Shown here in pieces: positions 1,710 to 26,973 of a stretch of DNA of 32,000 nucleotides. The notes under the pieces were generated by a model that saw only the letters and a program-made list of their open reading frames with translations, did not search any database and was not told where the DNA came from. This DNA is from Nostoc sp. PCC 7120 = FACHB-418 (GTDB taxonomy: Bacteria; Cyanobacteriota; Cyanobacteriia; Cyanobacteriales; Nostocaceae), in assembly GCF_000009705.1 (NCBI RefSeq), contig NC_003272.1:1950001-1982000 (forward strand). The letters are read 5' to 3'. How positions within the stretch are numbered: position 1 is the stretch's first letter; every line of letters starts with the position of its first letter. The position numbers and the translations under genes are program-made.

Positions 1710-4700
1710 CTATTTTTTTTCTGCCACCATGATTTGTCCTGCCAAATATTGGACAATTTGTGCCAGGGTACGCTTTTCCGCCAGTTCTTCGGGGCTAAGT
1801 TTGGGTAACTGAGGAAAAGATTCATGTAGAGTTCCCATAATTTCTACACGCTTGATGGAGTCCACGCCTAAATCCGCTTCTAAATCCATCTCTAATTCCA
1901 ACATTTCTGTAGGATAACCAGTTTTATCACTGACAACCTCCATTAATGCTCGGCTAATGTAACTTTCACTAGCCGCAGGAGAAGCAGTTTCAGTGACAAC
2001 TAATGTGGGTTGAGGAGTAGGGGCAGAATAACGAGGCTCTAAATAGTTGGCAATATGGGAGATATGAACGGGTTCAGCTACAGGTGCAGGAGTTACCTTG
2101 GGAGATTCCACTACAGGTGCAACAGGGGTCTTGGGAAGTTCTACCACAGAAGCGACGGGTGTCTGGGGAAGTTCCACCACTGGTGCTGGGACAACAACTG
2201 TTTGCTCCGCAATAGCAGAGGTTGAACCTTGAGGAATAAGAACTTCCTGTTGTTGCAGTAATTGTAGAAATGCTTGAAAACTCTGGGATTGAGTCTTCAC
2301 GTATTGTTCGTGAACCTGTAGCATTTCTTTTTGATGTTGATAAAACTGTTGGAAAAGATAGGCGACAGTATTATGAGTAGAGTTATTCATGGTATTTGTT
2401 TCGTCCTTAGAGATAATAAGTTGGTAATCAGATTGATGGTAAATTTCTCCTAGAGATACCGACTCTTCCATCACAGAGACGGGGGTAATGGCAATCTCAT
2501 CATTTGATGAAGCCACTAAAGGTTGAGCAGGGGAATCTGAAACAACAGTTGCTGCATCAGAAGCAACCTGATCAAGAGGGGTGGAAGCTAGCTGCACTAC
2601 AGGCTCAGGTTTGAAAGCAAATTCAAAGGCAGCTTTTGTTTTGTCACTGATGTAGTTGGTGGCATTGAGCTTAATAGATAATCCTTTAGATTTGCTTTTT
2701 TGAGCAGGCAATTTTCGGGGAGAAGCATCAAGATCCTCCAGGGACAATCCCATTACTCGTAGTTGGATGACTCCTTGACGCAGTTGGACATCACTGTCTT
2801 TTTGGCGACTGGGGTTGAGGGCAATGGCTATATGGGGGCGATCGCCTAATGTCTGCTTAACTAAGTTGGTGAGAATTTGTCGGGGGCCAATTTCAACAAA
2901 GCAATATCCTCCTTGGGCGTAAAGATTTTCGATTTCCTGTGCAAACTGAACGGCATTTAAAAGATGGGCTTCCAACAGTTGCCTGATGGCAGTTGCCTCC
3001 GTCGGATAGGCGTTACCCGTCATGTTTGCATAGACAGGAATTTGAGGAGTATTAAAGGTCACCCGATTGAGCGCCTCTGCAAAGGGTTGACTTGCATGGC
3101 GAACAAAGGGGGTGTGAAAAGCAGCAGAAACAGTTAAAGGAGTAACAGTGTAGCCCTGTTTGCTTAATACTTTCTCTAGGGCGGCAATTTCGGGTTTAGA
3201 ACCAGACAGTACTACTTGTTCTGGAGCATTATAATTAGCAATCTGCACCTTAGTCATACCGGCGATCAGTTGCTTAATTTTTGCCACATCACCACTGACG
3301 GCCAACATCGTACCGCGATCGCAATCATGAGACCCTTGGGGAATAGTCATGGCTTGCCCCCTGGCTTTGATCAGGTAACAATAATCCTCATCACTAAACA
3401 CCCCAGCCGCCCAAAGTGCAGTTAATTCCCCAAAGCTATGACCAGCCACAAAATCGGGCTTAAATCCTACTTTCTGCAAGATTTTATACAATCCCAGGCT
3501 CAAGGCTCCAATGGCAGGTTGAGCGTTTTCTGTGCGCTGTAATTGTTGGGACTGTTGCTTGATTGTTTCTGGGCTAAAGGCAGGAATTGGAAAGACTACA
3601 TCAGACAAAGCTGGCAAGTTATCCTGAGCCATCAACTGATCCAGAGCTTGATAAGCTTGTTGTATCTCTGGGAAGTTCAAGCTAATTTCTCGCCCCATGT
3701 TCAGATATTGCGACCCTTGACCGGGGAACAAAGCTACAACTTTACCCTTGAGAGATAAACCAGTTTGGCGGTAGTAAATCCCTTGGGGATGTTCCCAGGC
3801 AAAAGCCTGGGGCTGTATTTGCAGTTGTTTAATCGCTGCTTTTAGTAATTTTTGGGCTTCTTCTAGAGAGGTAGCCACAAAGCCCACACGGGCAGATGTT
3901 TCGGGGATGAGGGCTGTTTTGCTGTGATTTTGCAGTTGATTATATTGTTCGCCGCCGTTGTCAGATTGCAGTTGCTCAAGAGTCGCTTGACACTTTTGAG
4001 ATAATTGTTGTGGCGTATCAGCCCACAATAAAATAGATTGGGCTGTGGAATGGATGCGATCGCCTCCTTGGGGAAGTGTCGGGGTATATTCTTCCAAAAC
4101 CACATGATAGTCAGTGCCGCCAAATCCAAAAGAACTGACCCCCGCCCGTCTAGGAATGTCGCCATTTTGTATCCAGGGACGAGTTTCTGTATTGATATAA
4201 AAGGGAGACTCTTCTATTTTGAATTTCGGATTAGGTTGGGTGACATTAATGGTCGGTGGCAGGATTTTATGGTGTAAGGCTAGGGTCGCTTTGATTAAAC
4301 TAGCAGCGCCAGCAGCAGCTTTGGTGTGACCGATTTGAGATTTAACACTACCAAGAGCGATTTGTTGTTTTCCTGCCTGATTTTCCGTCAAAACTTGATT
4401 GAGGGCGGTAAATTCACAGAAGTCACCAGCTGGCGTACCTGTACCATGAGCTTCCATTAATCCTAAAGTCGCAGGAGAAAAGCCTGCATCTTCATAGGCT
4501 CGCCGTAAAGCTCGCACTTGTCCCTCAACACGGGGCGCATAGATACTTTTATAGCGACCATCACTGGCAGTGCCAATACCTTTTATTACTGCATAGATGC
4601 GATCGCCATCCCGTTCTGCATCTGCCAACCGCTTGATAACTAACATTCCTAATCCTTCTCCCACCATCATGCCGTCGGATGTAGCATCAAAGGGATTAAG

Positions 4701-5501
4701 ATAGTCTTTTTTAGAAAAAGCTGGGGTTTTACTGAAACACATATAGTTGAGGATGGAGTTGTCTGTGTCAAAGCCCCCGGTCAACATCATGTCACAACGA
4801 CCTTCAATCAGTTCACTAATTGCCATTTTTAAAGCACTTAAAGAACTAGCACAAGCCGCATCAACAACACAGTTAGTTCCTCCCAAATCTAGACGATTGG
4901 TAATTCTTCCTGCGACCACATTAGGCAACATACCTGGGAAAGAATTTTCTGTCCACGGTACAAAAGCTGCCTGCATTTTTTCAATAATTTTTTCGGTCTG
5001 TTCTGCGGATAGACCACTATTTTTTAAAACTTTTTCCCAAACGGGATATTGTAAACGAGCAGTTAAGGGAGTAATACTTTTCCAAAGTCCACTAGCCCCT
5101 AAAATTACTCCTGTTGTTTCTCGATTAAATTCTTTTCCTTCACTATAACCAGCATCTTTCAATGCTTGTTTTGCCAATACCAACGCTAATAAATTTGCTG
5201 AATCCAAAGCTTCAAGAGTATCCGGTGGCAATCCAAATTCTAAGGGATCAAAATCGATTTCTGGGAGAAATCCCCCTGCTCTGGCGTAAGTTTTATCAGG
5301 CGTACTGGGGTCTGGATCATAATAATCTTTAAGGCTCCAAGCTGTTTCTGGAACTTCAGAAATACCGTTGATTCTAGCTAGTATATTGTCCCAATATTGT
5401 TGTAAATTCTCTGCTTTGGCAAACAAGGCTGACATACCAATAATGGCAATAGGTGTTTGTTGTAAAGCGGAATTTTTCAGGGTCTTTTGTTGTGTATCCA
5501 T
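1710..5501 (-). CDS. HglE/PfaA-like polyketide synthase, KS-AT-(Pro-rich repeat linker)-ACP
   Basis: 1263 aa. KS motifs: DAACASS, EAHGTGTPAGD, GHTKAAAG. AT motifs: GHSFGELTALWAAG and SAAFHTPF. The single ACP has LGVDSIKRVEI, typical of PUFA-synthase/heterocyst-glycolipid-synthase carrier domains. The N-terminus (TPIAIIGMSALFAKAENLQQYWDNIL) is PfaA/HglE-like rather than modular-PKS-like. Confidence 0.9.
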   Translation of the reverse strand: MDTQQKTLKNSALQQTPIAIIGMSALFAKAENLQQYWDNILARINGISEVPETAWSLKDYYDPDPSTPDKTYARAGGFLPEIDFDPLEFGLPPDTLEALDSANLLALVLAKQALKDAGYSEGKEFNRETTGVILGASGLWKSITPLTARLQYPVWEKVLKNSGLSAEQTEKIIEKMQAAFVPWTENSFPGMLPNVVAGRITNRLDLGGTNCVVDAACASSLSALKMAISELIEGRCDMMLTGGFDTDNSILNYMCFSKTPAFSKKDYLNPFDATSDGMMVGEGLGMLVIKRLADAERDGDRIYAVIKGIGTASDGRYKSIYAPRVEGQVRALRRAYEDAGFSPATLGLMEAHGTGTPAGDFCEFTALNQVLTENQAGKQQIALGSVKSQIGHTKAAAGAASLIKATLALHHKILPPTINVTQPNPKFKIEESPFYINTETRPWIQNGDIPRRAGVSSFGFGGTDYHVVLEEYTPTLPQGGDRIHSTAQSILLWADTPQQLSQKCQATLEQLQSDNGGEQYNQLQNHSKTALIPETSARVGFVATSLEEAQKLLKAAIKQLQIQPQAFAWEHPQGIYYRQTGLSLKGKVVALFPGQGSQYLNMGREISLNFPEIQQAYQALDQLMAQDNLPALSDVVFPIPAFSPETIKQQSQQLQRTENAQPAIGALSLGLYKILQKVGFKPDFVAGHSFGELTALWAAGVFSDEDYCYLIKARGQAMTIPQGSHDCDRGTMLAVSGDVAKIKQLIAGMTKVQIANYNAPEQVVLSGSKPEIAALEKVLSKQGYTVTPLTVSAAFHTPFVRHASQPFAEALNRVTFNTPQIPVYANMTGNAYPTEATAIRQLLEAHLLNAVQFAQEIENLYAQGGYCFVEIGPRQILTNLVKQTLGDRPHIAIALNPSRQKDSDVQLRQGVIQLRVMGLSLEDLDASPRKLPAQKSKSKGLSIKLNATNYISDKTKAAFEFAFKPEPVVQLASTPLDQVASDAATVVSDSPAQPLVASSNDEIAITPVSVMEESVSLGEIYHQSDYQLIISKDETNTMNNSTHNTVAYLFQQFYQHQKEMLQVHEQYVKTQSQSFQAFLQLLQQQEVLIPQGSTSAIAEQTVVVPAPVVELPQTPVASVVELPKTPVAPVVESPKVTPAPVAEPVHISHIANYLEPRYSAPTPQPTLVVTETASPAASESYISRALMEVVSDKTGYPTEMLELEMDLEADLGVDSIKRVEIMGTLHESFPQLPKLSPEELAEKRTLAQIVQYLAGQIMVAEKK
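1713..1720 (-). repeat. A8 homopolymer (T8 on + strand) immediately 5' of the stop codon of the KS-AT-ACP gene
   Basis: Read directly. The minus strand is ...atg gtg gca gaa aaa aaa tag. The downstream ORF frame reads tgg tgg cag aaa aaa aat agc through the same bases, so the two frames are offset by one nucleotide. Confidence 0.9.
2082..2180 (-). repeat. Three tandem 33-nt (11-aa) Pro-rich repeats in the linker preceding the ACP
   Basis: The translation reads VVELPQTPVAS / VVELPKTPVAP / VVESPKVTPAP. The DNA repeat is visible at 2082-2180 (gtggtggaacttccccagac...). Confidence 0.85.
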
Positions 5502-5712
5502 GTTCCTTTTGTCTTCTCCAATAATGAGTAGTAGGGAAAATATTAGAGGCTTGTAATTTACATATTCTTTTGGGGTTAGATATATTGAATCAACTCAATT
5601 GGTCTAAATTTACGATTTTTGTTTTTGGCATATTCAGTTGTGAATCCTGAATCTATTAACCGTAAATACTGAATTATTTATAACTTCAATATATCTTCTC
5701 TTAATGCTTGAA

Positions 5713-5745
5713 ACAATGGATTATTTTCTGTCAAAAATGGAGATT
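5713..5745 (-). promoter_or_regulatory. Shared 33-nt upstream element, copy proximal to the HglE-like gene
   Basis: The + strand reads acaatggattattttctgtcaaaaatggagatt. Its reverse complement, aatctccatttttgacagaaaataatccattgt, matches 21923-21955 at 32 of 33 positions. It lies 212 nt upstream of the ATG at 5501 and contains TTGACA. Confidence 0.4.
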
Positions 5746-5843
5746 ATTGTTTTTTGCTGTTGGACGATAAAATAAATAAAAATCTGTAGGATATCTTCTA
5801 TTGTCCTTAGTAGTTTTGCATCAAAAAACTAAACTAAATTGCT

Positions 5844-5863
5844 CAAAAATGGAGATTTTTTAT
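5844..5863 (-). promoter_or_regulatory. Second, partial copy of the shared element (20 nt)
   Basis: The + strand reads caaaaatggagattttttat. Its reverse complement, ataaaaaatctccatttttg, is identical to 21917-21936. Confidence 0.35.
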
Positions 5864-6037: not shown

Positions 6038-6062
6038 AACCCTTGCCTACAAGACAAGGGTT
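6038..6062 (-). terminator. Candidate rho-independent terminator after the A-C NRPS gene
   Basis: The minus strand reads AACCCTTG-tcttgtagg-CAAGGGTT followed by aatttttga. That is an 8-bp stem, a 9-nt loop and a T-rich tail, about 50 nt downstream of the stop at 6111. Confidence 0.45.
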
Positions 6063-19392: not shown

Positions 19393-19529
19393 ATTGTTTA
19401 GTAGTTTAGGCTAGAGAAAGAGTCAACAAAAAATTTAATTCAGCTAAAATTCTAGCTGTCTTAATACCTATTCTATGAAGTTTTCTCTCAGTAAACCATA
19501 GGTTATTTTTAGGGAAAGATGGATTTTTA

Positions 19530-20363
19530 TTAGTTCATTGTTTGCAAAGATTGATATTTTTGTCTCCAACTTCTGGGTGACAATTTATGATACTGGCTAA
19601 AACGACGAGAAAAGTAATAAGCATCTGTAAAGCCAACAGCCATAGCAATCTCTGTTACTGACTTGTCGCTGTTAATTAATAATGAACGAGCTTCTAGCAT
19701 TTTTCTTTCGAGAATCCAATCAATAATCGTTAATTGGGTTCGACGCTTAACTAAATTAGTTAAATATGCAGGAGAATAACCGACTGCTTGGGCAACATCG
19801 TTAAGACTAATGGGTAAGTGATAGTTTTGCTCAATAAATTCAAAAATTGGTCGAATTTGTACACAATTAGGATAAAAGTCAGCACTTGACAAAGACTTAT
19901 TAGATGGGTGAACAGGCTGATTTTTTTCATCTAAATATAAACCTTGATCAGAGGAAATATCTGGATTCTTTGTCGAGAATGTATGAGCTAGAATACAGCC
20001 CAAAACTTCACTTCCATGTTCTAGAGATTTAATAGTGACTTCTATGGATTGATATTCTTGAGAAGAACAAACTTTCTTAAAAGTTAAGGAAGTTTGTTGT
20101 TTAAGTAATTGCCAGTAGTATGACCAACTTGAAGGAAGAAAATCCATCTCTACTTCATCAATGGTCATGTTCAACAATTTTTGTCTAGAATGCCCTAATA
20201 AAGAACAAGCAGCATCATTAATGTAGTGAAAGTGACCTTGATAATCTAAACAAAATATTGCTTCCTTCACTTGATTGATCAAATGCTGAATTAAGGAAAC
20301 TGGTTCAGATAAGCTTGATTGAGAGTATGTGTTGGTAGAGGAAATATTTTGGTTGGAAAACAT
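19530..20363 (-). CDS. PAS-domain / AraC-family HTH transcriptional regulator
   Basis: 277 aa. The C-terminal ~100 aa (ISLNDVAQAVGYSPAYLTNLVKRRTQLTIIDWILERKMLEARSLL...VTEIAMAVGFTDAYYFSRRFSQYHKLSPRSWR) form a canonical double-HTH AraC/XylS domain. The N-terminal ~110 aa (IFCLDYQGHFHYINDAACSLLGHSRQKLLNMTIDEV...) are PAS-like. Confidence 0.85.
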   Translation of the reverse strand: MFSNQNISSTNTYSQSSLSEPVSLIQHLINQVKEAIFCLDYQGHFHYINDAACSLLGHSRQKLLNMTIDEVEMDFLPSSWSYYWQLLKQQTSLTFKKVCSSQEYQSIEVTIKSLEHGSEVLGCILAHTFSTKNPDISSDQGLYLDEKNQPVHPSNKSLSSADFYPNCVQIRPIFEFIEQNYHLPISLNDVAQAVGYSPAYLTNLVKRRTQLTIIDWILERKMLEARSLLINSDKSVTEIAMAVGFTDAYYFSRRFSQYHKLSPRSWRQKYQSLQTMN

Positions 20364-21580
20364 AATGTCAATTTTTACTAATTGATAGTTTGAGATGGAA
20401 TTTGGACTTTGGGTGGAAATAAATTTCTTCCAGATTGTCAGGTCGTAAATTTGTTGCTTTTATCTATATTATTCAGGGTGTAAAGTAGTTTTTATGCAAT
20501 CTTATTACATAAAAATATAATTTTGCTGTTAATAAATGTGAGCCTTTACAGCAAGTATGATTCATACATGGACGAAAGTCTGATTATGCGGGTTGTGTCA
20601 TACATACTTTATAGATGTCAGTTGCAGAGACCATTTATAAAGTGAATATTAAGTAGGGTGTGTTACGGTTGTGTAAGGATTTGGGTGTGTGAGCAAATTA
20701 TATATAGCCGTAACGTACCGTATGATAGTGGTGCGTTATGCTTTGCTTTAACACGCCATTACAAATTTAAGGTTTACTCTATAAATCATCTCTGATTAGC
20801 TTATGAACTAACACTAAAGGGGCAGAAGAAGTGAGAAGAGATGGCAATAGAAAGCTTATAAACCCAACGCGGTACTTTACTGTAGGCTGTCTATTTATAA
20901 AGTGCGTGAGTCCTCTCCGTGTATTTATTCATCAATAAACATACTAATCTTTATGTCGTTCTGTTACATTACTTAACAATCGAATTGATGGGATGTAGTC
21001 TAGTTCGCACTGTGAACTCGTCTAAACCCCAATGAGTAAGGGCAACAGAGCGATCGCAAATATCAAGGAAGATGTATTTATTTACCTTCACATAGTTCGT
21101 TTTTTTGAGTTGTTCTACTCAGAGGCTTTGATTATTACTCCCTTTCGCTTGTAGGAAAGGGATTGGGGGTTAGGTTTAAGAAAAAGCTGCATATAGTGTT
21201 AATTTAGGAATTATGCTTTTTCTTTCACCATGAAGTAGCTTATTGGTTTAATATTAAATCTTATTTATAAATAATTTAAGTCGAAATTAATTTATATACA
21301 TGAAGTGCTTTGTTTAGATTTGTAATCTATAATCAAAAATCTTTAATTGACAAATTAAATTATTGAAAATTTAATTTATATAATAATATCAAAAATAGAT
21401 AGTTTATGTTTATGTTTCGGGAAAAAATAAATCATAAAAACTGCAAACAAGGTAATTTTGAAACCACATGAGTGTGCTAGTAAAAACGTTTAAAAAAACT
21501 ATAGGACTCATACTTGATTTTTGAAATACACGTAGGGGAGCCACTGCGTTGGACGGGTTTCCCGGCTTGGAGCAGGTGGC

Positions 21581-21627
21581 GTTGGGCATTGCCCACCAAA
21601 ACTATGAGCCGGTGGGCAATGCCCACC
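21581..21627. repeat. Two copies of a GGTGGGCAWTGCCCACC-type palindrome, inside a block of dispersed cyanobacterial repeats (~21530-21680)
   Basis: tgggcattgcccacc (21583-21597) is the exact reverse complement of ggtgggcaatgccca (21611-21625), and each copy is itself palindromic. It is flanked by gccactgc...cgggtttcccg...gcaggtggc and gcaggctacgccaac, both typical Nostoc repeat words. Confidence 0.7.
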
Positions 21628-21916
21628 CTACAGATACTGAGAATTTTATGCGCTAGTGCAGGCTACGCCAACAGAAATCAAATCAGATTCCTATATCTAG
21701 GTATTGGTAACTTTTGATATTCAGTGATATGAAATGAAAGTATAGAGATGGCAACGGTGATGACTAAGTGAGTAGCGGAAAAAATTTACAAATATGTAAC
21801 AAACAATTAAACTGAAGATTTGCGGTTAAATTTGTTACGTTGTACACGGTAGTTACCTTTTTCTCCTCTGATTGGAACTCTACAAATTACAGCACAAGAC
21901 TTGCGTCTAATTCTAC

Positions 21917-21955
21917 ATAAAAAATCTCCATTTTTGGCAGAAAATAATCCATTGT
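21917..21955 (+). promoter_or_regulatory. Shared upstream element, copy upstream of the PEP-CTERM/efflux gene set
   Basis: The sequence is ataaaaaatctccatttttggcagaaaataatccattgt. It combines the 20-mer found at 5844-5863 (reverse complement) and the 33-mer found at 5713-5745 (reverse complement, 1 mismatch). Its orientation relative to the downstream gene is the same as at the HglE-like gene. Confidence 0.4.
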
Positions 21956-22054
21956 ATGGGCATTTAAAAAAAACTAAACTCAAGTCACAAATAATAACTG
22001 TTGCAGGAAATCTACATTGTAAGTAAGTTAATACAGTTCAGTTAAGGCTCACAA

Positions 22055-22225
22055 CTTAGAGGATGTTTGAAAAGTCCCATGCTTGGTAGCAAAACATTTT
22101 AGATCCCCCTAAATCCCCCTTTTTAAGGGGGACTTTGATTCATTTTACCCCCTTATTAAGGGGTGTTAGGGGGGATCAACGAGTGCTTAAAATCACATCC
22201 AATCACTTTTCAAACATCCTCTTAG
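22055..22225. mobile_element. MITE-like element (171 bp) with 20-bp perfect terminal inverted repeats
   Basis: cttagaggatgtttgaaaag (22055-22074) and cttttcaaacatcctcttag (22206-22225) are exact reverse complements. The interior has nested hairpins: gatccccctaa / ttaggggggatc, ccccctttttaaggggg and ccccttattaagggg. No coding capacity. Confidence 0.75.
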
Positions 22226-22260
22226 ATCGGGTCTAAACAGTTTCGCCACAAACAAAAGAA

Positions 22261-22278
22261 CTTTTCAAACATCCTCTT
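22261..22278. repeat. Solo copy of the MITE terminal repeat
   Basis: cttttcaaacatcctctt repeats the right TIR 36 nt downstream of the element. Confidence 0.7.
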
Positions 22279-22328: not shown

Positions 22329-23108
22329 ATGCTGAAAAAAATAAATGCTACATTTTCAGGTTTACTGAGTATTATCACTGCTGCAACTGCGACTGTTACC
22401 ATATTGTCTTCATCAGTGAAAGCGGCAGACTTTAGACCCTATCGCTTTGTCTCAGGTCAGGAGAGTATTAGACTCGATGCTGATGCCTTGAATTCTCTAA
22501 AAGCTATTGGCTTAAATCTATCGGTTGTAGATAATGTAGTTCCTCCAGCAGAGGGTTTTGACTTCGGTTGGCCAGTGTTACCACCAGCAACTAATCCAGG
22601 CGATCGCGGAACAAGTTTTGAGTTCCTTTATGATGAAGAGACAGATACTTTTGTTCCCATCTCAGGAACCATTGAGTTTAACGGCAGTTTATTCTTTGAT
22701 TTTGACCCAACTAAATTTAGTGTAGCGTCGCCACTACAATTAGGCGAACTTTCAGTTTTTTTTAATGAAAACTATGAATTTTTCGCGATCGATACAGTGA
22801 CAACTAATCTACCGATCATGACTGTTAATACCTTCGAGGCCCCAACAATCGATTTAAAAAATCGCACTTGGTTTCTTGAACCCATTGAATTGGTTTTCAC
22901 CACAGAATTTAGTAACTTTCTTATCAATGCAGCCATAACTCCAGAATCAGCCAATGAAGTGGCAAGTCTTATACCTGGTTTAAAAATAGGGGAAGCTAGA
23001 GGAGATCGGGGTTTTATTCCCTTAGATACTGCTTCTGTTCCTGAACCCAGCATCTTACTGGCGATGTTTGTAGTTACGGGAACAGTATTAGTAGCGAGAA
23101 AGAAATAA
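22329..23108 (+). CDS. Secreted PEP-CTERM-anchored protein, unknown function
   Basis: 259 aa. N-terminal signal peptide (…ILSSSVKA/AD). The C-terminus VPEPSILLAMFVVTGTVLVARKK (from 23037) shows the PEP motif, a TM helix and a basic tail. Confidence 0.8.
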   Translation: MLKKINATFSGLLSIITAATATVTILSSSVKAADFRPYRFVSGQESIRLDADALNSLKAIGLNLSVVDNVVPPAEGFDFGWPVLPPATNPGDRGTSFEFLYDEETDTFVPISGTIEFNGSLFFDFDPTKFSVASPLQLGELSVFFNENYEFFAIDTVTTNLPIMTVNTFEAPTIDLKNRTWFLEPIELVFTTEFSNFLINAAITPESANEVASLIPGLKIGEARGDRGFIPLDTASVPEPSILLAMFVVTGTVLVARKK

Positions 23109-24103: not shown

Positions 24104-24359
24104 AGGTTTTTCCTGAAAATTGACCAATATAACTTGATTTCATCAATTCCTCAGTAGCTTATAAAGAATCAGCGAATTTAGCTAAAGATTCTCCATTTCT
24201 CTGAGGAATTTCTGTTTTATAGTAAGTTTTAAGAATTATACGTAATTCCTTCTAGGTATACTGACAATTAAACTATTTGTCCAATAATCTCTTAGCCCGT
24301 TTGATTGTTAAAAATCAAGAACTAATTCCACATCATCATTTGGAGTCGAACAACTAACT

Positions 24360-25440: not shown

Positions 25441-26973
25441 ATGCAAGATACCAATCCTGCTTCATGTTCATCACCGGAAGAAACTCTAGAGATTGCTGCC
25501 TCCTCTGTTGAACAGAATAAAACTCCTAAAAGCTCTTTGAGGTTTTCTTGGGGATTATGCCTAAGTAGCCTACTCTTGTTGGGATTGGGTTTTTGGCTGG
25601 GTTCAATTCGTCAAACAGTAGAACCCATTAGTTCCGCAATGGCAGAAAATCAAAATTTCCTGCCCGTTGAAGTGGATAATCTAGTTGCTGCCAGTTCCTA
25701 TCAGCAGTCTCGTACCTATACCGGAGAAATTGTTGCCCAAAATACTAGTAATTTAGGATTTGAACGGGCTGGTAAAGTTGTCCAACTTGCGGTAGAAGCA
25801 GGACAATGGGTGAGTGCAGGCACTCCCTTAGCCCGTTTAGATACCAGTCAGTTGATGGCTCAAAAGCAAGAATTATTTGCTCAAAAGCAACAGGCTCTGT
25901 TCCAATTGAGAGAGTTGCAAGCTGGGCCGAGGGCAGAAACCATTGATACAGCGAGAGCTAAACTAGCACAAGAACAGGCGCTACTCAAGGAAATGCAATC
26001 AGGGCCTCGGATACAAACGATCGCCTCAGCAAGGGCTAATGTCAATAATTTACAGGAACAGTTAGAATTAGCACGCTCTAAAAGTAAGCGGCGAGAAGCC
26101 CTTTATAATCAAGGAGCGATCGCTCGTGAACAATTTGACGAAGCGATTACCGATGTTAATAGTCAACAAGCCAGGGTAAAACAAGCCCAAAGTCAACTGG
26201 ATGAATTATTAGCCGGAACTCGCTCAGAAGTGATTACTGCTCAACAGGCTAGGGTAAAACAAGCCCAAAGTCAGCTCAATGAATTATTAGCCGGAACTCG
26301 TTCAGAAGTGATTGAGGCTCAAAAAGCCGCCCTCAAACAATTACAAAGCCGTCTAGCCAGTTTAGAGCTTGATTTAGAAAAAAGTGTTCTCAAAGCTCCT
26401 TTTTCTGGTAAAGTTTCTCAGCGTTATCTTGATCTAGGCACAGCCGTTTCTAGTGGACAAGCGATCGTCCGTCTGGTTCAAGTAGAACAGGTGAAAGCCC
26501 ATATAGGCATTCCTGCATCCCTCACCTCTCAAATTAAAATCGGGGAAGTTCAATCAATACAGGTGGGTCAAAAATCCTATCGGGCAAAGGTTGATTCCTT
26601 CTTACCAGAACTAGACAAAGCTACTCGTACCATAACCGTAGTTTTAAAATTGGAAGATGCTGCCAGTAAAACTTTAACAGCAGGGCAAATCGTCAATTGG
26701 CAACTAAAACAAAAGATATCAACTTCCGGTTATTGGCTGCCAACAACAGCATTAGTACGTGGTATACGGGGGTTGTGGTCTGTCTACATTTTAGGAACAG
26801 TTCCCGGAGGCTTTGAAGTAGAACGTCAAGATGTAGAAGTTCTTTATACTGACGGGGAACGGGTTCTGGTACGGGGAACCCTAGAAGGTAATGAACAAAT
26901 TATTACTAATGGCACAAATCGGCTGGTTCCTGGCCAAAAAGTACGTCCTATCTCATTAGGGAGTTCCAATTAA
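25441..26973 (+). CDS. HlyD-family periplasmic adaptor (membrane fusion protein) of an efflux system
   Basis: 510 aa. N-terminal TM anchor (LCLSSLLLLGLGFWLGSI). Lipoyl-like segment (GEIVAQNTSNLGFERAGKVVQL...GQWVSAGTPLARLD). A long coiled coil carries four G(P/T)RxExI repeats. The C-terminal beta-barrel/MP region includes APFSGKVSQRYLDLGTAV. Confidence 0.85.
   Translation: MQDTNPASCSSPEETLEIAASSVEQNKTPKSSLRFSWGLCLSSLLLLGLGFWLGSIRQTVEPISSAMAENQNFLPVEVDNLVAASSYQQSRTYTGEIVAQNTSNLGFERAGKVVQLAVEAGQWVSAGTPLARLDTSQLMAQKQELFAQKQQALFQLRELQAGPRAETIDTARAKLAQEQALLKEMQSGPRIQTIASARANVNNLQEQLELARSKSKRREALYNQGAIAREQFDEAITDVNSQQARVKQAQSQLDELLAGTRSEVITAQQARVKQAQSQLNELLAGTRSEVIEAQKAALKQLQSRLASLELDLEKSVLKAPFSGKVSQRYLDLGTAVSSGQAIVRLVQVEQVKAHIGIPASLTSQIKIGEVQSIQVGQKSYRAKVDSFLPELDKATRTITVVLKLEDAASKTLTAGQIVNWQLKQKISTSGYWLPTTALVRGIRGLWSVYILGTVPGGFEVERQDVEVLYTDGERVLVRGTLEGNEQIITNGTNRLVPGQKVRPISLGSSN
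26164..26319 (+). repeat. In-frame 2 x 78-bp tandem duplication inside the MFP coiled coil
   Basis: Unit 1 (26164-26241) and unit 2 (26242-26319) differ at only a few positions. The translations are QQARVKQAQSQLDELLAGTRSEVITA and QQARVKQAQSQLNELLAGTRSEVIEA. Confidence 0.9.

Follow-up and report, generated by a model that had tools for sequence, protein, structure and literature searches.

We analysed a stretch of 32,000 nucleotides of Nostoc sp. PCC 7120 DNA, which as a whole is referred to here as the window. Its minus strand carries, in this order, a gene for a PAS-AraC regulator, an ACP gene, two PKS genes, an NRPS gene, a terminator, a pfaA-like gene and further genes. On the plus strand lie three PEP-CTERM-type genes and the genes for a membrane fusion protein (MFP), an RND transporter and a ShlB/POTRA protein. 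The closest named orthologues were PfaA of Nostoc parmelioides (95% identity) and AraC of Trichormus variabilis ATCC 29413 (92%). In gene content the window resembles the uncharacterised Clade II triple-hybrid PKS-NRPS-PUFA-synthase-like clusters, which the passages of PMC13291983 on this clade place in Trichormus, Nostoc, Scytonema and Microcystis. Those passages cover the Clade II enzymes; the regulator, the PEP-CTERM/RND export genes and a cis-element go unmentioned in them. The features on which the analysis centres are listed below, in the order of their coordinates.

1710-5501, minus strand: pfaA/HglE-like KS-AT-ACP gene, which heads the operon downstream of copy A
5688-5693, minus strand: predicted -10 TATATT of the pfaA promoter, assigned by conservation
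5714-5748, minus strand: predicted operator copy A in the promoter of the pfaA/HglE-like operon, with the 33-mer 5713-5745
5844-5863, minus strand: copy B, a distal half-site standing alone, ATAAAAAATCTCCATTTTTG, at 112 bp upstream of copy A
6038-6062, minus strand: hairpin resembling an intrinsic terminator, behind the NRPS gene, with an 11-bp stem and then a run of T
19470-19475, minus strand: predicted -10 TAGAAT of P_ACP, 20 nt after ..TATGG
19496-19530, minus strand: P_ACP, a predicted third, diverged operator, ATAAAAATCCATCTTTCCCTAAAAATAACCTATGG, in the interval between the AraC stop codon and the ACP gene
19530-20363, minus strand: PAS-AraC regulator gene (Pfam PAS_8/PAS and HTH_18/HTH_AraC), candidate binder of the operator
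21920-21954, plus strand: predicted operator copy C in the promoter of the export operon, with the 33-mer 21923-21955
21952-21957, plus strand: weak -35-like TTGTAT of copy C
21975-21980, plus strand: predicted -10 TAAACT of copy C, 20 nt after ..CCATTG, assigned by conservation
22329-23108, plus strand: the PEP-CTERM-type gene that comes first in the export operon, downstream of copy C

The core AATCTCCATTTTTG occurs three times in the window, at 5732-5745 and 5844-5857 on the minus strand and at 21923-21936 on the plus strand, and no fourth match was found there with two mismatches allowed. The reverse complement of 5713-5745 agrees with 21923-21955 at 32/33 positions, and from the base composition of the window about 3.7e-9 pairs of 33-mers with at most one mismatch would be expected by chance. 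Likewise, the reverse complement of 5844-5863 was identical to 21917-21936. The similarity between copies A and C extends beyond the 33 nt, at 76-79% across 76-77 nt (5673-5748 against 21920-21995). All three copies read toward the downstream gene, copies A and B toward 1710-5501 on the minus strand and copy C toward 22329-23108 on the plus strand. The original prediction had described a 33-nt pair that could not be due to chance, an identical second copy of its core, and a promoter position with gene-relative orientation at every copy; each of these points was borne out, with some 4e-9 such pairs expected. It had also held that the pfaA/HglE-like gene needs a promoter of its own downstream of a terminator, and the hairpin at 6062-6038 on the minus strand, which separates the NRPS operon from the pfaA promoter, agrees with this.

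Sites from the window and from related loci were placed in an ungapped alignment of 9-10 sites, in which TCCAT, AAATAA,.C.AT.G and TA.A.T are invariant and the sequence between them varies. The module consists of two 13-nt direct-repeat half-sites (consensus aAAAAtaaTCCAT, from 18 pooled half-sites) exactly 21 bp apart. TCCAT-N16-(T/C)(C/A)(C/T)AT, a direct repeat with a period of about two helical turns, is present in all 9-10 sites. The TCCAT cores of the half-sites lie at 5741-5737 and 5720-5716 in copy A, and at 21927-21931 and 21948-21952, 21 bp apart, in copy C. The only other conserved block is TAnAnT (mostly TAAACT), which lies exactly 20 nt past the proximal half-site, or 21 nt in one site. 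Invariant blocks with a variable interior point to constraint on spacing and phasing. The three cores of the original prediction are thus present, and the unit is a pair of half-sites 21 bp apart with a -10 at a fixed distance rather than the core itself. The aligned sites were as follows.

PpfaA_win: AATAATCTCCATTTTTGACAGAAAATAATCCATTG-N20-TATATT
PPEP_win: AAAAATCTCCATTTTTGGCAGAAAATAATCCATTG-N20-TAAACT
PpfaA_L019: AAAAATCTCCATTTTTGACATCAAATAATCCATGG-N20-TAAACT
PAO_L006: AAAATTCTCCATTTTTGACAGAAAATAATCCATGG-N20-TAAACT
PACP_win: ATAAAAATCCATCTTTCCCTAAAAATAACCTATGG-N20-TAGAAT
PACP_L006 and PACP_L013: both AAAAAAATCCATCTTTCTCCAAAAATAACCTATGG-N20-TAAACT
L035, two modules upstream of pfaA: AAAATTATCCATTTAAAGCACTAAATAATACATTG-N20-TAAACT and AAGATTATCCATGATTAACTATTAATAATCCATTG-N20-TAAGCT
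L035, module upstream of the PKS gene: ..GTCCAG-N16-CCTATGC-N21-TAAACT

The -10 assignment was made from conservation alone. When the start is taken 7 nt past TAnAnT, the 33-mer spans about -64 to -32, and transcription would begin near 21987 for copy C, near 19463 for P_ACP and near 5681 for the pfaA promoter, the last with a leader of about 180 nt. At the -35 position the sites hold a weak TTGTAT, TTGTTT or TGGTAT, and a simple promoter scanner did not call the module promoters, as is expected with so weak a -35. The full architecture was found three times in the window against 0.01 expected per shuffled window, a figure to be read with the fact that the regular expression was composed after the sites had been seen, so that the independent HMM and matrix discoveries described below weigh more. 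All three matches are intergenic and each points at an operon.

The TTGACA/TTGGCA within the element had been put forward as its -35, an assignment that does not hold. TTGACA is replaced in related sites by TTTCCCT (P_ACP) or by TTAAAGCA and GATTAACT (L035), and no conserved -10 lies at 16-18 nt from it; therefore it is not the -35. From it to the one conserved -10-like hexamer downstream are about 35 nt, and in the geometry of the module it falls at about -53 to -48. A canonical sigma-70 promoter with TTGACA as -35 was considered and rejected, the hexamers at 17 nt being TGGGCA, TAAGCG, TCGGGA and TCAAGC; such a promoter was not called by the promoter scan either.

An nhmmer profile built from the main copies only gave weak matches in the AraC-ACP spacer, on the gene strand, in three loci (window 19491-19524, L006 5742-5780 and L013 498-580). 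A weight matrix built from four main sites only ranked 19496-19530 on the minus strand as the best position in the window outside its training sites, with a score of 10.3, the maximum over 30 shuffles being 8.1. With the same matrix the P_ACP sites of L006 and L013 came first among the non-training positions, with a score of 15.1. The cores of P_ACP in the window, TCCAT (19523-19519) and CCTAT (19502-19498), are again 21 bp apart, and in L006 and L013 its -10 reads TAAACT. The copies that the original prediction had reported around 5713-5863 and at 21923 are real, and its inventory had missed this third full module upstream of the ACP gene.

We compared the window with orthologous loci from ENA ERZ25039505 (contig_4772, with L006 and L019, and contig_4771, from which L020 comes), ERZ893784 (L035) and GCA_029979845.1 (L033). 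Contig_4772 is syntenic with the window, its PfaA being 79% and its PEP-CTERM protein 71% identical. In contig_4772/4771 the module lies upstream of pfaA at 9740-9821 of L019/L020, 240-255 nt from the ATG, and the distance to the ATG is nearly equal in L019 (-255) and in the window (-244). The export operon of contig_4772, headed in L006 by an amine-oxidase (AO) gene, has its module at 7439-7512 of L006, 105 nt upstream of the AO gene. Copy C is conserved at 30/33 positions in L006 and at 28/33 in L019, and the rest of the contig_4772/4771 intergenic regions gave no match. In L035, where PfaA is 73% identical, a matrix built without this locus found three modules. Their inter-half-site bases are unrelated to TTTTTGACAG, yet the half-sites are kept, as are their 21-bp spacing and the distance to the -10. 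Two JGI contigs (L003 and L004) carry the element as well. Conservation upstream of orthologues, which had been named as a check on the element, is thus seen at the pfaA and export promoters of contig_4772/4771 and at pfaA in L035.

The likeness of the copies might be historical only, a promoter segment having been duplicated or gene-converted and serving no sequence-specific function. That the cluster is clearly rearranged, as judged from the gene order of L033, L008 and L035 against that of the window and contig_4772, speaks for such a history, as does copy C being closer than copy A to the pfaA copy of L019. A neutral duplicate, however, would decay evenly, whereas copies A and C agree at 32/33 positions in the 33-mer and at 24/45 in the adjoining 45 nt, and P_ACP and L035 have retained the half-sites and their spacing despite different bases in between. 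The 33-mer moreover keeps 28-31/33 positions in all cross-genome comparisons, so that it is under constraint and more than a recent duplicate. We consider a purely historical similarity improbable.

Copy B has neither a second half-site nor a -10, and shares 27 nt with copy A, on the upstream side only. It is not conserved in L019/L020, and in its stead L035 has a second full module 194 bp upstream. As a distal half-site it recalls araO2 of the AraC system.

In several other loci the module, or one of its copies, was not seen. Copy C was missing from L013-L015, in which the cluster looks truncated and the MFP and RND genes are lacking, and no module was seen in the examined parts of the Microcystis, L008, L016 and L017 loci, parts that lie outside the pfaA upstream regions. 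In the pfaA upstream region of L033, AATCTCC alone is retained, at -243 (the orthologous position being -244 in the window), and the region upstream of the ACP gene holds just a remnant without a -10. No convincing rearranged operator was found in L033. The operator there appears to have been rearranged or lost with the AraC gene left intact. At L033 9758-9790, AATCTCC is followed by an inverted AATCCAT, which is not a direct-repeat partner. A plasmid of Nostoc flagelliforme CCNUN1, pNFSY07 (188677-229294; L036), holds a degenerate, transposase-interrupted relative of the cluster with PKS, NRPS and MFS genes and two PEP-CTERM genes; no operator-like site was found in it.

The arrangement of the operons differs between these loci. 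In L033/L008 and L035 the AraC gene is divergent from pfaA, and in L033/L008 the pfa genes are succeeded by MFS (a major-facilitator transporter gene), AO and finally the PEP-CTERM gene. The L035 sequence breaks off inside MFS, and of the L033/L008 order the Microcystis loci have the downstream part. In the window and contig_4772 the pfaA block instead follows the NRPS gene, and both resulting operons have a copy of the module, which argues that the promoter was duplicated when the operon split. The window has lost the amine-oxidase gene, of which no remnant is left, and exactly in place of L006 7581-9959, the stretch with that gene and a spacer, it has a MITE-like array at 22055-22277.

This array separates copy C from the PEP-CTERM gene. 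As terminal inverted repeats it has CTTAGAGGATGTTTGAAAAGT and ACTTTTCAAACATCCTCTTAG (22055-22075 and 22205-22225), with an extra right end at 22251-22277 and G/C-rich palindromes inside, and it is 70-83% identical to intergenic DNA of Nostoc, Anabaena and Dolichospermum plasmids. Three further observations were made in the window. The MFP gene (25441-26973) contains an in-frame tandem duplication of 78 nt at 26156-26311 (88% identity, 26 codons). The region of about 1.5 kb upstream of the AraC gene (20364-21900) has no convincing ORF and shares only short blocks with L013, e.g. 21635-21696; no operator-like site was found in it. Just past the second PEP-CTERM gene, at 24147-24208, lies a hairpin-like element (TTCCTCAG ... 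AAAGAATCAG..AATT.TGC.AAAGATTCTCCAT ... CTGAGGAA), which is also present in L006, L013, L017 and the Microcystis loci L009/L010, i.e. from Nostocales to Microcystis. RNAalifold gave it 13 pairs, two of them with compensatory changes, and its loop holds ATTCTCCAT, which is like the operator's distal half-site. An RNA element within the operon, an attenuator and an additional half-site are all conceivable roles for it.

In genomes of Nostocales, repeats such as MITEs, IS ends and REP-like elements abound, and one such repeat lies only 100 nt downstream of copy C; the copies might accordingly be members or fragments of a dispersed family. Among 185,579 reference genomes (GTDB representatives), CTCCATTTTTGN5AAATAATCCAT gave one match, in a Cloacimonadales MAG with unrelated flanks, and TCCATTTTTGN5AAATAATCCAT gave 11 matches among metagenome contigs, in unrelated low-GC contexts. 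None of the genome or metagenome matches had the -10 in register. A distant-mode blastn search of the 72,556 plasmids of PLSDB with the element gave no match. These scans missed the source organism's own copies, and what they exclude is a widespread family, not a particular copy number in the source genome; of the genome-wide count of the 33-mer that had been called for, the collections supply the part showing only chance matches, and the source genome's own copies were not returned. Nor did the scans return a Trichormus variabilis locus, despite its 92% identical AraC. Either the stretches concerned are masked or absent, or the element differs at one or more of the 21-22 specified positions. 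Around the copies themselves no terminal inverted repeats or target duplications were found, and the copies sit at orthologous promoter positions. With 1 + 11 scan matches, all attributable to chance, and no plasmid match, the dispersed-repeat alternative raised by the original prediction was not upheld, and we regard it as extremely improbable.

Copies A and C are also near-perfect inverted repeats 16.2 kb apart, and L006 has a serine recombinase gene at its end, both of which would suit a pair of recombination sites flanking an invertible 16-kb AraC-PKS-NRPS segment. Orientation and synteny are nevertheless equal in the window and contig_4772, in L035 a single gene is preceded by two copies in direct orientation, the segment itself contains P_ACP, and no recombinase gene adjoins the copies in the window. 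Inversion at these sites is on this evidence exceedingly unlikely.

An effect at the level of RNA or peptide, through a leader structure, an sRNA or a small ORF, was considered since a 41-codon ORF (21901-22026) overlaps copy C. Against it, Rfam gave no match at the gathering score and RNAalifold no consensus pair over five sequences, every reading frame is interrupted by stop codons in several of the nine aligned sites, no conserved small ORF was found, and the conserved block lies mostly upstream of the predicted start. We hold such an effect to be very improbable.

Taken together, a conserved operator plus promoter probably accounts for the element, the 33-mer being most likely the operator part of an activator-dependent promoter module that is re-used within the cluster. 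The architecture of the sites, their conservation at orthologous promoters, the fixed spacing and the restriction to the cluster are shown by the sequence analysis. In re-used ("mobile") promoters, homologous promoter segments stand before non-homologous genes. The module is like them in that a segment of about 80 nt lies upstream of non-homologous genes (pfaA, AO/PEP-CTERM and ACP), and unlike them in that its copies stay in one cluster, sharing an operator, and are not spread over the genome.

The protein most readily connected with this operator is the regulator encoded beside it. PAS-AraC orthologues were found in the same cluster in L013, L033, L035 and contig_4771/4772, counted as five other lineages, and the gene is present in the cluster of every module-bearing lineage. 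Their DNA-binding domain is nearly invariant, and so are its two recognition helices, GYSPAYLTNLVKRRT and DAYYFSRRFSQ, among the orthologues aligned, whose identity goes down to 47%. Microcystis, Cyanothece sp. BG0011 and Crocosphaera have AraC orthologues as well. In the plasmid collection, AraC and PEP-CTERM queries returned only AraC matches at the level of the DNA-binding domain and one degenerate N. flagelliforme cluster.

With AraC at araI1-I2 and XylS at Pm the module shares a pair of homologous half-sites, direct repeats of about 13-17 bp at a periodicity of about 21 bp, and a regulator with two HTH motifs that is encoded nearby. The proximal half-site would adjoin a predicted weak -35, and the geometry of the module fits the AraC/XylS class II activator layout. 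A direct-repeat operator with proximal and distal sites is the layout described for XylS at Pm (PMC5481539). Direct repeats two turns apart at a weak -35 being the arrangement of both systems, the PAS-AraC protein is the candidate binder. The half-site aAAAAtaaTCCAT is, however, unrelated in sequence to TGCA-N6-GGNTA or to araI, and for sensing the protein has a PAS domain in place of a cupin/arabinose or benzoate domain. A direct-repeat operator adjoining the -35 had been expected for an AraC-type regulator, and the comparative data fit this expectation.

A precedent comes from Nostoc punctiforme, in which AraC_PKS1 (RS10525) is a pathway-specific activator of the pks1 cluster, over-expression of which turns the cluster on, and whose homologues occur only in cyanobacteria and mostly adjoin biosynthetic gene clusters, as given in the searched text of PMC9324945. 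With the PAS-AraC protein it shares the AraC family, a cyanobacterial host and a location within a polyketide gene cluster; it differs in serving another cluster and product (PMC9324945). A binding site of AraC_PKS1 is not mentioned in the searched text of that paper.

The operator and promoter may, on the other hand, be real and be read by another protein, either a global or unlinked factor or an alternative sigma factor (AATCCATKG, TAAACT). It would be in keeping with this that L033 retains an intact PAS-AraC with identical recognition helices although it has lost the module, and that the half-site-like ATTCTCCAT is conserved in the intergenic PEP-CTERM hairpin even in the Microcystis loci. 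Yet direct repeats spaced by 21 bp at a weak -35 are typical of AraC/XylS dimers, and to our knowledge atypical of CRP/NtcA, LysR, Fur or OmpR-type sites. Among the NtcA, Fur, LexA, HLR1/RpaB and HetR sites as we know them, none fits the element. The module was moreover seen only in clusters that encode PAS-AraC, and the strict pattern had no related occurrence outside the cluster in the scanned collections. We thus regard another reader as rather unlikely, and put the chance that the module is read by the cluster-encoded PAS-AraC at about even.

Viewed as a whole, a cluster-specific AraC/XylS-type operator-promoter module, used several times and read by PAS-AraC, is in our opinion a reasonably probable explanation. 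The positions of the transcription starts, the role as activator and not repressor, and the binding protein are our inferences. Following the example of XylS at Pm or of AraC at araI1-I2, a PAS-AraC dimer would bind both half-sites; it would also recruit RNA polymerase. Of the three full modules in the window, copy A would serve the pfaA-like lipid operon, copy C the PEP-CTERM/MFP/RND export operon and the diverged copy the ACP-PKS-NRPS operon, so that the biosynthesis and export operons could be turned on together according to a signal perceived by the PAS domain. That PAS-AraC in fact co-activates the Pfa-like lipid, PKS-NRPS and PEP-CTERM plus RND/ShlB export operons via the 21-bp-spaced operator is a tentative proposal, to which we give slightly less than an even chance.

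The module is ordinary regulatory biology, probably of the known AraC/XylS type. The cluster is also a clear case in which, on its division into separate operons, the promoter was copied. The Clade II PKS-NRPS-PUFA-synthase-like cluster is an orphan, found also in bloom-forming Microcystis, and a predicted operator, three predicted promoters and a candidate activator should aid experiments on it. Over-expression of the AraC gene, for which AraC_PKS1 is a precedent, may be a handle for turning on the silent cluster, and the promoters may serve as reporters of its signal. The shared operator is further an argument for counting the PEP-CTERM proteins and the RND/ShlB exporter as functional members of the pathway. 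If PAS-AraC does co-activate the three operons, the operator would mark out a compact, signal-responsive regulon linking secreted PEP-CTERM proteins to a specialised lipopeptide, and would be a direct route to waking the pathway.
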